A stretch of DNA of 64,000 nucleotides from Clostridia bacterium (GCA_017461765.1 JAFTXO010000027.1:9659-73658); one strand, 5' to 3'. Counted from the first letter of the stretch, positions 1,528-38,023 are shown. Notes: generated by a model not told the origin, from the sequence alone. Numbers and translations are program-made.

Positions 1528-1691
1528 ATGAATGAATTGATGCTTACGCATCATGAATTGGCTTCGCCATGATTTCTCGCTTCGCTCCATGAATTGAATT
1601 GCAACCAATGTGCCGTAAGGCACAATTCATGCCGCAGGCAATTCATGAAAGCACCGCTTTCAATTCACGCAGCCGTGAGGTTGCAATTCAT
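1528..1691. repeat. Compound palindromic element E1 (word CATGAATTG / CAATTCATG, 4+4 copies with GC mini-hairpin spacers)
   Basis: Left-arm words start at 1528, 1552, 1568 and 1587. Right-arm reverse-complement words start at 1623, 1639, 1661 and 1684. Spacers are ATGC-TTAC-GCAT, GC-TTC-GC (x2), the apex GTGCC-GTAA-GGCAC, GCC-GCA-GGC and GCAGCC-GTGA-GGTTGC. Confidence 0.75.
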
Positions 1692-1748: not shown

Positions 1749-3902
1749 TTACGATATCGTTTGGGCATTTAAATTGCAAAGCTCCGAGACCTTTTTTCGC
1801 AATAGCTCATGCTCAGGCTTTGAGAGGGAGCGATCGTCTTTTAGTATTTCTCTTGCACATTCAAAGGCGTTGTGCAAAAGAATATTGTCGTTACAGGATT
1901 TCGCAATATTGAACCCGAGCTCACCCGATTGCCTTATCGAGTCGCTCGATGAGAAAAAGTCACCGGGACCTCTCATTTGAAGATCCTTTTCGGCAATAGT
2001 GTAGCCGTCGTAGGTCGTGTGCATTATCTGTAAGCGCTCCATTGATTTAGGACTTCTTGCATCCGAAACGAGAACACAAAACGACTGATCCTTACCTCTG
2101 CCGACACGTCCTCTTAGCTGATGTAGCTGCGAAAGACCGAAGCGCTCTGCATTTTCAACTATCATAAGCGTAGCATTCGGTACGTTTACACCGACCTCGA
2201 TAACAGTGGTCGAAACGAGAATGTCGATCTCGCCGTTTGCAAAGTGCATCATTATTTCGTCCTTTTCCTTGCATTTCATCTTTCCGTGTAAGAACTCAAC
2301 GGTAAGGTCGGGAAAGATATTTTCTTTAAGCTCCTTGGCGTAGTCAACAGCGGCTTTAAGCGGGGGAGTGTCGTCCTTTATATCAATTATGAACGGATTA
2401 TAGTCGGGAGTGTCAAGATCGTTTTCCTTCTTTTCCTCAACACTCGGACAAACTATATATACTTGATTTTTGTTTTCAACCTGCTTTCTTATAAAGGCGT
2501 TAAGACGCGATCTGTATGATGAATCGACACTGTATGTGTTGACCTTTTTTCGACCGGGTGGCATAGTGTCGATAAGAGATATATCAAGATCTCCATAGAT
2601 CATAAGCGAAAGTGTACGAGGGATCGGTGTCGCACTCATAACGAGCACGTGCGCGCTTGCGCTTTTCTCGGCAAGCTTCGCCCTCTGCATAACTCCGAAG
2701 CGGTGCTGCTCATCTGTTATTACAAGACCGAGATTTTTGAATTCCACACCCGTCTGTATAAGAGCGTGTGTACCTATTACAAAATCGGTATCTCCGCTTT
2801 TCAGGCGGGAGAGTATCTGATTTTTTTCTTTTTTCGGCGTAGATCCCGTTAGAAGCTCGCACTTGAGACCGAGTGAATTAAACATAGGAAAAAGAGAATC
2901 ATAATGCTGAAAAGCAAGTATCTCCGTAGGTACCATAAGCGCACACTGGTATCCGTTTTTGCACGCAATATAAGCGGCAACGGCGGCACATACGGTTTTT
3001 CCGCTTCCTACATCGCCGACAATTATTCTGTTCATAGGCCTTGTGAACATGGAAAAATCTGCGTCGGAAACGGCGTTTGTCGAACACATATCGCCACATA
3101 TATCGGATATTACCTTCTTTTGAGCATCGGTCAACTCATACGGAAGCATATCAACAAGAGGAGAAGCATCACCGTCATTCATTCGCGGCGCAAGCTTTGA
3201 GCTTGATACGGTTTTCATCTGTGAAAGCGAAAGCGCGAAAATAAAAAGCTCGTCAAAGGTAAGACGCTTTATGGCAGCGTGTAATGCTTCGTCACTTTCG
3301 GGAAAGTGTATGTTTTCAAGAGCAAAGGGAAGAGCACATAAATGATATTTGTATCGGATATCTGAGGGGATGTATTCTTTAATAAGAGTGGATATGCAAG
3401 GACGTATCTGAGAAACGAGCTTTGATATATATTTCTGAGTTACTCCTTGAAAAAGAGGATATATAGAAACAAAAGGCGGAAGCTCCTCCTCGCGTACACA
3501 AGGCTCGTAAGACGGTGAATTCAGCGACAGGGTGCGCTTTTCCTTTACGATCCTGCCCCAAAATCTGAATGTTGCGCCCGTTCTGAATACATCCTTTAAA
3601 TAGTTTTGATTGAAATAAGTAACGGTAATGCTTCCGCTATCGTCAAAGGCGCGAAATTTTAAAATATTCATACCTCTGCGTATCATAGCCACCTTCGGCT
3701 CGGAAGCGACCGTCAAAACGTAAGAGTGAGGCATATTATCAAACACAGGGGTGTCTATTTTATATACATCCTTGCGGTTTTGGTAGGCTCTCGGAAAATA
3801 ATAGAGCAGATCGTTTACCGTAAATATTCCGTTTTTATTAAAATATTGCTCGTACTTAGGGCCTACTCCGTATAGCTCGCCTATCGGTGTATCAAGTGTC
3901 AT
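1749..3902 (-). CDS. recG: ATP-dependent DNA helicase RecG
   Basis: 717 aa. The N-terminal wedge region (MTLDTPIGELYGVGPKY...), Walker A GDVGSGKT, DEQHRFG and the QLHQLRGRVGRG motif are typical of RecG. Confidence 0.93.
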   Translation of the reverse strand: MTLDTPIGELYGVGPKYEQYFNKNGIFTVNDLLYYFPRAYQNRKDVYKIDTPVFDNMPHSYVLTVASEPKVAMIRRGMNILKFRAFDDSGSITVTYFNQNYLKDVFRTGATFRFWGRIVKEKRTLSLNSPSYEPCVREEELPPFVSIYPLFQGVTQKYISKLVSQIRPCISTLIKEYIPSDIRYKYHLCALPFALENIHFPESDEALHAAIKRLTFDELFIFALSLSQMKTVSSSKLAPRMNDGDASPLVDMLPYELTDAQKKVISDICGDMCSTNAVSDADFSMFTRPMNRIIVGDVGSGKTVCAAVAAYIACKNGYQCALMVPTEILAFQHYDSLFPMFNSLGLKCELLTGSTPKKEKNQILSRLKSGDTDFVIGTHALIQTGVEFKNLGLVITDEQHRFGVMQRAKLAEKSASAHVLVMSATPIPRTLSLMIYGDLDISLIDTMPPGRKKVNTYSVDSSYRSRLNAFIRKQVENKNQVYIVCPSVEEKKENDLDTPDYNPFIIDIKDDTPPLKAAVDYAKELKENIFPDLTVEFLHGKMKCKEKDEIMMHFANGEIDILVSTTVIEVGVNVPNATLMIVENAERFGLSQLHQLRGRVGRGKDQSFCVLVSDARSPKSMERLQIMHTTYDGYTIAEKDLQMRGPGDFFSSSDSIRQSGELGFNIAKSCNDNILLHNAFECAREILKDDRSLSKPEHELLRKKVSELCNLNAQTIS

Positions 3903-35855: not shown

Positions 35856-35884
35856 TTGACAATTAAGGAAAAACATGATATAAT
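35856..35884 (+). promoter_or_regulatory. Consensus sigma-A promoter for tRNA-Gln
   Basis: TTGACA (35856-35861), 17-nt spacer, TG-n-TATAAT (-10 at 35879-35884). Confidence 0.8.
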
Positions 35885-35903: not shown

Positions 35904-35979
35904 TGGGATATAGCCAAGCGGTAAGGCACCAGACTTTGACTCTGGCATCTCGGTGGTTCGAACCCACCTATCCCAGCCA
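35904..35979 (+). tRNA. tRNA-Gln (anticodon UUG), CCA encoded
   Basis: The acceptor stem TGGGATA pairs with TATCCCA. The anticodon stem CCAGA pairs with TCTGG, with loop CTTTGAC (TTG at 35936-35938). T-arm is GGTGGTTCGAACCCACC and the 3' end is GCCA. Confidence 0.93.
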
Positions 35980-35987
35980 ACAAAAAA

Positions 35988-36020
35988 CGCACTTTTGTCT
36001 ACCGACAAAGGTGCGTTTTT
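35988..36020 (+). terminator. Terminator after tRNA-Gln
   Basis: A 12-bp stem, CGCACTTTTGTC-TACC-GACAAAGGTGCG, followed by TTTTT. Confidence 0.85.
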
Positions 36021-36215
36021 AATGATGTTTGCCTTCGGCAAATGATGTTGGCTTCGCCAATGATGACGGCTACGCCTAATAATGCATGGCTACGCCACAT
36101 TTTATGGCAAACATCGCATCATTGCGGCACGAAGTGACGCAACATCATATTTGCAAAACAAATGCATCATATCGCCGTAAGGCGATGCATCATTGAAGAT
36201 ATACAAGGCTTCGCC
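36021..36215. repeat. Compound palindromic element E2 (word AATGATG / CATCAT(T), 4+4 copies with GC mini-hairpin spacers)
   Basis: Left-arm words are at 36021, 36041 and 36059, plus a degenerate copy at 36079. Right-arm words are at 36117, 36143, 36165 and 36188. Spacers are TGCC-TTC-GGCA, GGC-TTC-GCC, GGC-TAC-GCC (x2), CAC-GAA-GTG, CGCC-GTAA-GGCG and GGC-TTC-GCC. Confidence 0.75.
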
Positions 36216-36244
36216 TTGATTTATTGGCGGAAGTGTGGTATATA
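36216..36244 (+). promoter_or_regulatory. Sigma-A promoter directly abutting E2
   Basis: TTGATT (36216-36221), 17-nt spacer, TATATA (36239-36244), preceded by TGG. Confidence 0.5.
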
Positions 36245-36268: not shown

Positions 36269-36802
36269 TTGAAACGCGAAGAAGCCTTTTATTATATGAA
36301 TTTGTTGTTATTGGGCTTTTCTGATGGCTATGATGATTGGTTGAATTATTATTTAGAAACAGAATCTCCATTGAGTGATATTGTATTAGAACTTTCTCTG
36401 TGCGGCTCGGATGTAAACAAAACCGTATCCCTGTTACACAATTACTGTACGGAACAAGAATTTGACAAGTCTGTTTCTCATGACAAATTGCGACTGTTTT
36501 TCAAAGACGCCTATCATTCAAATAGGATGAGCAAAGAAAAAGTACTATCTACTATGTACCGTCTGTCCTTGAATGTTGGTGATCCAGGAGATTTTGATAT
36601 TAAATTATGGGGTAGCATGTACTATCTCGATTATTACTACGGCTTGGCTTTAGATGGCGTAATCCCGATGGAAAATTTTGATTTTGCTTTTTTCTCATAC
36701 CTTGATAATGGAACGCCGCTCGATTCAGATCTTATTTTGAGAAAAAACATTAAAAAGAAACCGTCATTCCTTGATAAAATTAAAAGCTTTTTTAAAAGAT
36801 AA
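36269..36802 (+). CDS. Hypothetical protein (all-alpha looking, immunity-protein-like small cassette gene)
   Basis: 177 aa when started at TTG 36269, 8 nt after GGAGGTGA (the track ORF starts at 36224). No family recognised. Confidence 0.55.
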   Translation: MKREEAFYYMNLLLLGFSDGYDDWLNYYLETESPLSDIVLELSLCGSDVNKTVSLLHNYCTEQEFDKSVSHDKLRLFFKDAYHSNRMSKEKVLSTMYRLSLNVGDPGDFDIKLWGSMYYLDYYYGLALDGVIPMENFDFAFFSYLDNGTPLDSDLILRKNIKKKPSFLDKIKSFFKR

Positions 36803-36874
36803 TCATAACCGGACACCTTTTGTTCGCAATTACCTCAATTTTTGACCTTTTATCACGTTTAAGACAGATAAACG

Positions 36875-36902
36875 AAAAACGAACCACTTCGGTTCGTTTT
36901 TT
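36875..36902 (+). terminator. Terminator after the 36269 gene
   Basis: CGAACC-ACTTC-GGTTCG followed by TTTTTT. Confidence 0.8.
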
Positions 36903-36915
36903 GTTTATCAGTTAT

Positions 36916-37110
36916 ATTCGCCTTATGGCGAGTTCTATTGCTTTGCAGTGATATTACTTCGTAGTGATATTGCCTTCGGCAGTTGAAAGTAACAGGGCGA
37001 ATATAATATCACTGTGAGCGATGCGAACAATATCACTATGCGTAGCATAATATCACTTCAACGCAGTTGAAATATCACTTAATCGATGCTATACTTATTA
37101 TGAGGTGATA
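36916..37110 (+). repeat. Compound palindromic element E3 (word GTGATATT / AATATCAC, 4+4) including promoter and RBS
   Basis: Left-arm words are GTTATATT, GTTCTATT and GTGATATT (x2). There are four right-arm AATATCAC words. The 3' end carries TTGAAA (37067-37072), 17-nt spacer, TATACT (37090-37095) and GAGGTGA (37102-37108). Confidence 0.8.
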
Positions 37111-37113
37111 ACA

Positions 37114-37469
37114 ATGTCAAATAGCATTTTAAGAGATAAATCAAAGGATTTTGCAAAGCAAATTGTCATTCTTTGCAAAAACATAAAAGCCAATTTAAGG
37201 AATCAGTTTTAACTAATCAGCTTTTGCGTTCCGGCACAAGCATTGGTGCTAATATACACGAAGCTCAATACGCACAAGGCAAGAAGGATTTTATATCAAA
37301 GCTTGAAATTGCACAAAAGGAATGCTACGAAACCGAATATTGGCTTGAGCTTTTATTTGAAACAGGCTATATGTCAGAATCGGAATACAAGCCTATTCAA
37401 AATGAATGTGGTGCTATTCGCAGAATGTTAATTTCATCTATAAATACCACTAAAGCCAATTTGGAGTAA
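37114..37469 (+). pseudogene. Four-helix-bundle protein (23S rRNA intervening-sequence protein family), frameshifted
   Basis: The N-terminal part MSNSILRDKSKDFAKQIVILCKNIK is in one frame (stop at 37210-37212). The rest, SQFKESVLTNQLLRSGTSIGANIHEAQ...ETEYWLELL, is in another frame. The junction is the A4 run at 37185-37188. Confidence 0.7.
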
Positions 37470-37519: not shown

Positions 37520-38023
37520 ATGCCTATTTGGTACGAAGTTGAACATTCGAAAACAGGTATTTATAACTTTATGGAATGTAATTGGCATTTTCACGATTTT
37601 GAGATTGAACGCATTAGTTATTTGCCTGATGAAAATTCAGTAGAACTTTTTTTGAAGTATGATGAATTAAAGGGGAGTGTAATTCTTAGATTTATCAATG
37701 TATACTCTATGAATGTAATGTTTAAAGTAGAATATGGAAGCTTAGATAACATTATGGGAAGCGTTTTGCTCTTAACACAAAATGGACAGTTTTTGTGGAT
37801 TGATAATGATTCGTGGGGTGATAAAAGCAAGCACCATATTGAAGAACTCAAAAAAGAGTCTTCGTGGGTACAAGCTGAAAACATCATTTGGGCGGTTACT
37901 GATGAATATGGAAATCCTACCGAAATGCCTGCAAATAAAATTGACCAAGTATGGCAAATTTACGGTAAAATAGAGCATCATCATTTTGATTTGAAACCTT
38001 ATAATGGGAACAATCAGGAATAG
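37520..38023 (+). CDS. Hypothetical protein (small cytoplasmic, immunity-protein-like)
   Basis: 167 aa. RBS AAGGAGAA lies 6 nt upstream. No family recognised. Confidence 0.6.
   Translation: MPIWYEVEHSKTGIYNFMECNWHFHDFEIERISYLPDENSVELFLKYDELKGSVILRFINVYSMNVMFKVEYGSLDNIMGSVLLLTQNGQFLWIDNDSWGDKSKHHIEELKKESSWVQAENIIWAVTDEYGNPTEMPANKIDQVWQIYGKIEHHHFDLKPYNGNNQE

Follow-up and report, generated by a model that had tools for sequence, protein, structure and literature searches.

The Gut-1 motif (Rfam RF01706) was described from human-gut sequences as probably a non-coding RNA (Weinberg et al. 2010, PMC2864571). We analysed a 64,000-nucleotide stretch of DNA from an uncultured Clostridia bacterium of the ruminant gut (hereafter the window), in which an earlier sequence-only reading had noticed an array of short words and hairpins, E2, between the terminator of a tRNA-Gln gene and the promoter of the next gene. 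On the comparisons made here, E2 is best taken as a divergent sub-type of the two-armed arrays of words and mini-hairpins in gut Clostridia, the canonical left arm of which is Rfam Gut-1. E2 and Gut-1 are alike in a 7-nt word present four times, in three short hairpins between the words, in their occurrence in gut metagenomes and in their position downstream of terminators. Gut-1 as catalogued differs in that one arm was modelled, on the strand opposite to the one favoured by the hairpin loops, and in that it was classed as a small RNA (sRNA); the inverted arm, the sub-types and the link with a gene cassette are absent from it.

Other known systems share part of this design. Repetitive extragenic palindromic (REP) sequences, including their mosaic elements (BIMEs) and REP doublets forming hairpins (REPINs) and their REP-associated tyrosine transposases (RAYTs, Y1 enzymes of the HUH type), resemble the arrays in having a short intergenic motif with a hairpin, in forming direct and inverted clusters near gene 3′ ends and terminators, and in acting as single-stranded DNA. 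The REP hairpin sequence is conserved and its motif is GTAG, whereas the arrays have hypervariable hairpins and conserved words. A REP/BIME identity was rejected on these unconserved hairpins and on locus L186, where the Y1_Tnp gene is flanked by GTAGCGGCGCTCAGTGAGCGCC repeats and not by word arrays. This Y1, RAYT-like gene (2986-3528 of L186) is followed by classical REPs (3560-3900; GTAG and GCGGCGCTCAGTGAGCGCC) and lies about 1 kb from a canonical array, to which it appears unrelated. A RAYT or IS200 link based on its proximity, found by tblastn, was rejected since the transposase has classical REPs of its own.

Integron attC sites are also folded single-strand sites with complementary 7-nt end words, hypervariable and located between single-gene cassettes. 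However, attC consists of a single R''/L''-L'/R' hairpin that has extrahelical bases as well as a GTTRRRY core, and it depends on IntI, whereas the arrays have three to four reiterated words per arm with side hairpins, and their cassettes bring their own promoters and terminators. The arrays were not accepted as attC sites, as the reiterated words read RTGAWDT and not RYYYAAC / GTTRRRY and no integrase was found within +/-6 kb. Integrons are not known from Firmicutes. Type III toxin-antitoxin repeats, in which entire identical units are transcribed along with the partner gene from a promoter upstream, were excluded because only 7-9-nt words repeat and the promoter is downstream of the array, and clustered regularly interspaced short palindromic repeats (CRISPR; repeats of at least 23 nt, unique spacers of at least 20 nt) because the "spacers" of the array are palindromes of 9-24 nt. 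Chi, DnaA or Fur boxes, LytTR direct repeats, selenocysteine insertion sequences (SECIS), anticodon mimicry, single-strand origins (sso) with CS-6 and omega-type heptads were dropped for misfit of word or layout.

The pneumococcal BOX and RUP elements and eukaryotic Foldback elements are non-coding, structured, modular repeats with a variable number of units, and the arms of Foldback consist of short tandem sub-repeats; their mobilisers act in trans or are not known. They show no sequence similarity to the arrays, and BOX modules are of 45-60 nt and do not alternate words with mini-hairpins. Terminator targeting and loop polarity are not known for BOX, RUP or Foldback. DNA mini-hairpin sites (G4 oric, ssiA, N4) have the strand-specific GCGAAGC, GCGTAGC, CCGAAGG and C-GTAA-G motifs in common with the arrays, but comprise one to three hairpins in an origin or promoter, and no arrays of reiterated words are known among them.

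Architecture and family membership of E2

E2 is a genuine non-random DNA element. Loci with any 6-mer in at least three direct and at least three inverted copies numbered three in the window, as against 0.033 per 64 kb expected from 60 Markov simulations, about 100 times the chance frequency. The three loci were E2 itself and two further arrays, E1 and E3. Exact AATGATG sites number 18 in the window, and E2 contains five of them in its 174 nt. On either strand, and whether RNA or DNA parameters were used, the E2 region folded better than all 200 shuffles (z-scores of -3.4 to -3.9; -3.9 with RNA parameters). The proposed fold therefore held against shuffled controls, and the word periodicity, when sought in relatives, persisted in their arrays.

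Each arm of an array is a run of three to four near-identical words of 7-9 nt with short GC hairpins in between. The word is inverted in one arm relative to the other, and the hairpins of the two arms are neither related nor mutually complementary. The layout of E2 is given in Table 1. Direct reading confirmed the four AATGATG-type words on the left (W), the four CATCAT words on the right (W') and the hairpins between them, as well as the start of the element at the base after the T-run of the tRNA-Gln terminator, which ends at 36020. The number of left words was also right, but the fourth is imperfect here and is a perfect AATGATG in L002, a contig of the same species from another sample. The list of spacers stood for the inter-word hairpins but omitted ATTTG-CAAAA-CAAAT and included a final GGC-TTC-GCC (36208-16) that is not part of the array. 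This last palindrome belongs to the hairpin CAAGGCTTCGCCTTG, which is kept with the cassette promoter across homologues and therefore lies outside E2; the array thus stops short of the -35 box that it had been said to reach.

Within E2 the words are spaced 18-24 bp apart, about two helical turns. The sequence GGCAAACATC (36106-15) in the centre pairs fully with GATGTTTGCC (36024-33), and this pair is the counterpart of GGCGAATATAA / TTATATTCGCC in E3 and Gut-1. The centre GGCAAACATCGCATCATTGCGG was identical in the alignment of all E2-type copies. The outermost words, AATGATG and CATCATT, form terminal inverted repeats as in miniature inverted-repeat transposable elements (MITEs).

The words of the sub-types are ATGAATTG (E1), ATGATGTT (E2), GTGATATT (E3), ATGATAT (type of L008, a relative described below), ATGAAAT (L262) and GTGAAAT (Gut-1), and all fit the consensus RTGAWDT. 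The sequence-only reading, in which the word of E2 was completely different from that of E1, was overstated in this respect. Against the Gut-1 covariance model, which has a gathering cut-off of 50 bits, the two arms of E3 scored 48.8 bits (left, + strand) and 42.3 bits (right, - strand), L262 scored 41.6 bits, and the left arms of canonical metagenome loci scored 59-77 bits. The left arm of E2 scored 20.1 bits (E = 0.11, cmscan), below threshold, with its words and hairpins aligned to those of Gut-1. This was the sole plausible weak Rfam match of the arm, equally weak matches to eukaryotic microRNAs being due to chance; the right arm gave no Gut-1 match in the covariance-model scan. The architecture of E2 (four words, short hairpins, location downstream of a terminator) fits the Gut-1 consensus of GUGAAAU four times with three hairpins between. 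In the published seeds with their flanks (Stockholm file, PMC2864571 supplement), the seeds are followed by an inverted arm of AUAUCAC four times with hairpins, and a terminator stands ahead of them, together with a tRNA in one case. These flanks identify the Gut-1 seeds as left arms of the same two-armed element.

A structure-selected process had been proposed in place of the spread of one repeat sequence. The first part of this is borne out: architecture and not primary sequence is conserved, the array of L008 being unalignable with E2 and the hairpins changing in a compensatory manner. The second part is contradicted by the shared word consensus, the homology of E3 and the Gut-1 seeds, the dispersal of the arrays and the recurrence of the E2 type. 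The arrays form one diverged repeat family with sub-types and did not converge independently on a common grammar.

The seven hairpins were 94-100% paired across 33 canonical arrays. Changes on both sides of a stem amounted to 17 pairs, against 4.8 in shuffles (0 of 500 reached this number) and 2-8 with slid partner columns. The compensatory changes indicate that the hairpins are under structural constraint. The hairpins of E2 and its homologue in L255 also differ by compensatory changes; among E2-type copies GGCTACGCC is replaced by CGCTTCGCG and TGGCTACGCCA by TGCCTGACGGCA, and the other differences are loop changes within the same class (GTAA to GCGA) or replacements of the whole hairpin, while the words and the centre are near-identical. 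One entire hairpin differs between L250 and L260. Word-to-word helices between the arms were mostly invariant and their variants often uncompensated, GTGAAAT facing ATATCAC in 14 of the 33 arrays. Covariation between the words of the two arms had been expected; fine-scale W:W' pairing was unsupported, and only the matching of words by sub-type holds.

A survey of 85 distinct inter-word hairpins from 19 arrays, 76 of which folded, revealed a strong strand polarity. GNA or GNNA loops were present in 43 of the 76 on the W' strand and in none on the W strand, where no loop had G as its first base together with A as its last. The W'-strand loops were GAA (16), GTA (7), GCA (3), GGA (1) and GNNA tetraloops (16), almost all closed by 5'-C...G-3'. 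The W' strand was the more stable in 49 hairpins and the W strand in 14 (Wilcoxon p = 1e-5). The left arm of E2 has its favoured hairpins on the minus strand, with loops GAA, GAA, GTA and GTA within GCGAAGC, GCGTAGC (twice) and CCGAAGG, and the right arm has them on the plus strand (ACGAAGT, CCGTAAGG). The homologous right arms of L255 and L263 have GAA, GAA and GCGA/GCG. Judged by its bases, E2 would thus qualify as a carrier of DNA mini-hairpins, that is, of GNA/GNNA loops closed by 5'-C...G-3' on one strand. In L008-type arrays the favoured strands are swapped between the arms relative to E2.

GCGNAGC and GCGNNAGC are extraordinarily stable DNA mini-hairpins; only GNA triloops behave in this way, with melting temperatures (Tm) of 70-76 C, and GNNA tetraloops are also accepted (PMC13037366). 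They are found at single-strand initiation sites, namely G4 oric, RSF1010 ssiA (CCGAAGG) and the N4 early promoters (PMC13037366). Half of the tetraloops of the arrays are GNNA but not GNRA, and many stems are of 3 bp, with an RNA folding energy of 0 to -1.3 kcal/mol, and are predicted to be unfolded as RNA. These two properties favour DNA over RNA, and on this basis we consider single-stranded DNA rather more likely than RNA.

Table 1. Coordinates of E2, its flanks and the related arrays in the window
Feature	Position	Strand	Description	Basis
E2 whole array	36021-36194		174 nt	read from sequence
E2 left half-array	36021-36097	-	four W words, each followed by a mini-hairpin	sequence; loop and strand analysis
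E2 left words	36021-27, 36041-47, 36059-65; 36078-84		AATGATG (first three); degenerate AATAATG (last)	
E2 left hairpins	36030-40; 36050-58; 36068-76 and 36088-96		TGCC-TTC-GGCA; GGC-TTC-GCC; GGC-TAC-GCC twice (fourth hairpin 36087-97)	
E2 left units	from 36021	+	AATGATG tt TGCCTTCGGCA; AATGATG tt GGCTTCGCC; AATGATG ac GGCTACGCC; t AATAATG ca TGGCTACGCCA	
E2 centre	36098-36116	.		inverted repeat; alignment of E2-type copies
E2 right half-array	36117-36194	+	four W' words with hairpins between	sequence; homologous right arms in L255 and L263
E2 right words	36117-23, 36188-94; 36143-49, 36165-71		CATCATT (first two); CATCATA (last two)	
E2 right hairpins	36124-40; 36149-63; 36171-86		loop GAA, CAC-GAA-GTG inside; ATTTG-CAAAA-CAAAT; loop GTAA, CGCC-GTAA-GGCG at 36173-84	
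E2 centre and right units	to 36194	+	centre cattttatGGCAAACATCg; CATCATT GCGGCACGAAGTGACGC; aa CATCAT ATTTGCAAAACAAAT; g CATCAT ATCGCCGTAAGGCGAT; g CATCATT	
Bases after last E2 word	36195-36203	+	GAAGATATA	comparison with L250, L260 and L264: ...GATGATATACAAGGCT.ACGCCTTGATTTATT
tRNA-Gln promoter	35856-35884			promoter scan, 12/12 matches
tRNA-Gln (UUG) gene	35904-35979	+		ARAGORN; Rfam tRNA 62.6 bits
Intrinsic terminator of tRNA-Gln	35983-36020	+	17-bp inverted repeat and T-run	
Cassette promoter module	36204-36244	+	hairpin CAAGGCTTCGCCTTG overlapping -35 TTGATT (36216-21); 17-nt spacer; -10 TATATA (36239-44)	
Cassette gene	36269-36802	+	177 aa; faint DUF2247 match only	
E3, canonical array	36909-37079	.	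GTGATATT / ATATCAC; directly after the cassette terminator (36867-36909), before the frameshifted four-helix-bundle gene	
E1 array	1528-1691	.	ATGAATTG / CAATTCAT; directly after a terminator, between convergent housekeeping genes (DUF1846-like, recG)	

The cassette slot and the dispersal of the arrays

Contigs of the same species were identical to the window or nearly so. L002 differs from it at 5 positions in 6403 nt, and three of these (36081, 36086 and 36092) are clustered in 12 nt of the fourth E2 unit, where they restore a perfect word and a 5-bp stem. The calculated chance of at least three of five differences falling inside the 195-nt element is about 3e-4. Only one relative was met among the GTDB representatives, a metagenome-assembled genome (MAG) from water-deer caecum (L008), with 70% protein identity in the neighbouring metallo-beta-lactamase (MBL) hydrolase. 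L008 retains the tRNA-Gln gene and its terminator, which are followed by an array of CATATCATC three times and GATGATAT two to three times with bigger hairpins; no alignment of this array with E2 was possible in either orientation. The 177-aa gene that follows E2 in the window is missing at this locus, and the array adjoins the four-helix-bundle gene that stands after E3 in the window. Since the array leads straight into that gene, the 177-aa gene and one array represent an insertion/deletion difference between the two genomes.

Nine genomic contexts of the 177-aa gene were read. In most of them a terminator with apex TTTGTCTACCGACAAA is located farther upstream and starts right after the CCA of a tRNA, which is Gln in the window, Trp in L250 and His in L262, with tRNA-like ends in L255, L260 and L264. 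The apex is kept and the lower stem covaries (compared with L008, L250, L255, L260, L262 and L264), and the same terminator family precedes arrays after tRNA-Gln, tRNA-Trp, tRNA-His and tRNA-like 3' ends on other contigs. A hairpin CAAGGCT.CGCCTTG overlapping the -35 TTGATT precedes the gene in most of the nine contexts, whatever the type of array. The slot between the kept terminator and the kept promoter is occupied by a hypervariable array: type I, the E2 type, in the window and in two other metagenome contigs, namely L255, with four CATCAT and four AATGATG that are all perfect, and L263, which begins inside the array and so has just its right arm; type II, the L008 type, in L250, L260, L264, L258 and L008; and type III (ATGAAAT) in L262. 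L256 contains a deletion remnant and L252 nothing recognisable. The bases GAAGATATA after the last word of E2 are probably a remnant of GATGATATA, the last word of the type II array that occupies the slot elsewhere; this match with the L250-type array suggests that an E2-type array displaced an older one.

More than 140 homologues of the 177-aa protein were found, at 55-90% identity; for the MBL hydrolase next to it, the identities were only 100%, 70% and at most 58%. The far greater number of homologues than for a housekeeping neighbour indicates that the gene moves horizontally. No Pfam or NCBIfam family was assigned to the protein in the searches. E2 heads a horizontally mobile cassette of terminator, array, promoter and gene that is found after several different tRNA genes.

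Other features of these loci were recorded. No partial copies of the tRNA-Gln 3' end that might serve as attachment (att) sites were found in the window. In L250, with its tRNA-Trp gene at 2627-2702, an inverted 17-nt copy (3635-3651) and a direct 12-nt copy (3780-3791) of the tRNA-Trp 3' end lie downstream of the 177-aa cassette, which on sequence reads as the signature of site-specific integration of an islet of about 1.1 kb into the tRNA 3' end. L255 (~1005-1215), L256 (~1375-1560), L260 (1-166) and L264 (~40-160) share a structured, purine-rich element of about 190 nt. Its 3' end mimics the T-arm and acceptor end of a tRNA (...AATCTCTCCTTCTCCGCCA), and the cassette terminator and array begin right after its CCA in L255, L260 and L264, just as with genuine tRNAs. 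A second copy in L255 and the one in L256 follow the T-run of a terminator. It had no Rfam match and was not called a tRNA by ARAGORN.

The four-helix-bundle gene (PF05635 / TIGR02436, Avd-like; window 37115-37469) is split by a -1 frameshift near codon 30. The site reads AAGGAATCAG, and relatives have A-N-x-R-E-S-V-L. The frameshift is also present in the second-sample assembly L002, the homologue in L008 is split at about the same place, and the human-gut copy L131 is intact; it could be decay or a programmed shift. This gene is followed by a third small gene (37520-38023, 167 aa, no family), homologues of which (166-170 aa) stand behind the four-helix-bundle gene in L008 and behind the 177-aa homologue in L252-L254. 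This gene order suggests that tRNA loci repeatedly carry a set of small accessory cassettes. Upstream of E1, about 190 nt of non-coding DNA (1337-1527) between the stop codon of the DUF1846-like gene and the pre-E1 terminator contain a palindrome TTGACTAGTCAA and a hairpin TTTGGGCTAAGCCCAAA; this stretch may encode a small transcript or serve in regulation.

Scanning metagenomes with the canonical centre gave at least 120 canonical arrays, in at least 12 distinct genomic contexts among the matches listed; canonical arrays follow tRNA-Arg and two other tRNAs. Many of the matches lie at contig ends, as expected of a repeat that breaks assemblies. All three arrays of the window and those of L008, L250, L255, L258, L260, L262 and L264 start at the T-run of a terminator. 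In one sub-family the array is inside the terminator loop and not directly after the terminator. In a GC-rich gut host the canonical array is part of a recurring unit of about 330 bp with GAGAGGC / GCCTCTC ends (group B unit; L130, L134, L140, L166, L168 and L176 among other loci), which consists of a hairpin GAGAGGCGCAC..GTGCGCCTC, the array, three more hairpins, one of them terminator-like, and the end ATGAAGCCTCTC. L134 is a short version without the internal 3' hairpins. The flanks of each copy are mutually complementary with A- and T-runs, which indicates that the unit sits in the loop of a bidirectional terminator. At a human-gut tRNA-Arg locus the array lacks two word-hairpin units (L144, L161) or has one more (L239), as in a variable number tandem repeat (VNTR). 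In L182 and L183 a GC-rich left flank is joined to the low-GC tRNA-Arg right flank at a shared 40-nt centre; these two are probably assembly chimeras, and L261 calls for the same caution. Neither E2, nor its invariant centre, nor the canonical centre matched anything in the plasmids, phages and viral contigs searched. A scan of the collections for AATGATG three times gave only coding repeats of giant viruses; this pattern was not applied to the metagenomes.

Interpretation of the arrays

Our preferred interpretation, put forward tentatively and with somewhat less than even confidence, is that of a MITE-like fold-back element: E2 would seek out terminators and act in the form of single-stranded DNA. 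The array would be non-autonomous; its outermost words would serve as terminal inverted repeats, and the repeated words farther in as sub-terminal sites. It would be recognised or folded as single-stranded DNA, so that each strand presents one functional arm and the element works in either orientation. A mobiliser would place it beside terminator hairpins, and slipped pairing and template switching among the repeats would keep the words of one element alike. A benefit to the host, such as insulation of the tRNA unit from the cassette promoter, would be only secondary, and E2 itself would be a sub-type of long standing, carried along at the front of a mobile cassette. The interpretation draws on the inverted-word ends, the reiterated sub-terminal words, the dispersal, the sub-types, the abutment to terminators, the turnover of units and the replacement of arrays within the slot.

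Several points weigh against a MITE-like element. No transposase or recombinase was found linked to the arrays, no clean empty site was found, and E1, E2 and E3 show no target-site duplication. The E2 type was met only with the 177-aa cassette, in 3 of 3 cases, though after different tRNA or tRNA-like ends. Some of the apparent mosaics are probably chimeric, which weakens the evidence of recombination, and mosaics are not used as proof. Folding with DNA parameters gave equal energies for the two strands; this parameter set has no bonus for GNA loops, and the argument for DNA over RNA therefore rests on the published melting data. Finally, mobility by itself leaves the upkeep of the hairpins unexplained.

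One alternative is a structured non-coding RNA. On this explanation, which is that of Rfam, a transcript through the array would fold into hairpins that expose identical single-stranded words, and these might, for example, offer an RNA-binding protein a multivalent platform or sponge, or be a substrate for processing. Gut-1 was rated "certainly RNA" on covariation (Weinberg et al. 2010, PMC2864571), and the covariation of the hairpins was confirmed in our 33 canonical arrays. Several loops are true GNRA loops (GTAA, GTGA, GAAA, GCGA), G-U pairs number 7 against 2 with the W' strand higher, and the fold z-score with RNA parameters is -3.9. The arrays, however, lie between a strong terminator and the next promoter with no promoter predicted inside or upstream of an arm, which leaves only read-through as a source of transcript, and E1 lies between convergent genes. 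The strand favoured by the loops is opposite in the two arms, that of the left arm being the reverse of the Rfam orientation, and many hairpins, with 3 bp and a triloop, are predicted not to fold as RNA. We regard a structured RNA as rather unlikely, though the strongest of the alternatives.

It is also conceivable that the arrays are retained as spacers or insulators, bidirectional structured buffers that stop read-through or protect 3' ends and are selected for structure only. Their position from terminator to promoter, or from terminator to convergent gene end, is invariant, the two-armed symmetry would offer the same structure to transcripts from either side, and the architecture is kept while the sequence changes. 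Nevertheless, the hairpins are without U-tracts and hence are not terminators, and cassette homologues function without an array (L256, L252). Selection for structure alone also leaves the identical words, the family-wide consensus, the loop polarity and the dispersed near-identical copies unexplained, and we consider it unlikely.

Of slightly lower probability again are two further proposals. In the first, the arrays would be folded single-strand DNA sites for recombination or priming in a so far unrecognised cassette-capture system of gut Clostridia, integron-like in function, by which single-gene cassettes with promoters are stacked after tRNA genes and tRNA-like mimics, at their 3' ends. 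If the proposal were true, the orphan "Gut-1 RNA" would be a DNA signal and not an RNA. In the second, the arrays would be a neutral by-product of tandem and inverted duplication and of quasi-palindrome correction downstream of terminators, with no sequence-specific machinery and no function. Gain and loss of units and clustered, conversion-like changes were indeed observed, and the fine-scale pairing of words between the arms is not maintained (GTGAAAT against ATATCAC, as above). A symmetric mutational process, however, does not predict the 43-to-0 polarity of GNA/GNNA loops, nor the word consensus across sub-types, the sub-type centres or the dispersed homologous copies.

The weakest explanation, which we hold to be very improbable, is a set of eight duplex protein-binding sites (iterons, operators or a centromere) controlling the cassette promoter or partition: four direct and four inverted 7-bp words just upstream of a promoter and the spacing in E2 of roughly two helical turns speak for it, but relatives are spaced at 27-33 bp, varying with hairpin size and hence not helically phased, one genome contains three different words, E1 has no downstream promoter, and hairpin covariation and loop polarity are meaningless in duplex DNA.

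Gut-1 has stood in Rfam since 2010 as an RNA without organism or function, and the catalogued motif is one arm of a two-armed element. The array hairpins bear the hallmarks of stable DNA mini-hairpins when read on the strand that Rfam does not annotate. Searches of the literature for repeats of this kind returned only the 2010 Gut-1 paper; the two-armed nature, the sub-types missed by the Rfam model (E2 included), the terminator rule, the loop polarity and the cassette link appear to be newly described here. A practical effect is that the arrays break and mis-join metagenome assemblies. The array marks the hypervariable head of small gene cassettes that move between the tRNA loci of gut Clostridia. 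If the arrays are indeed mobile and act as single-stranded DNA, they would form a new class of mobile DNA, one that seeks terminators, in a major clade of the gut, and would give a handle on the exchange of small accessory cassettes in gut Clostridia.

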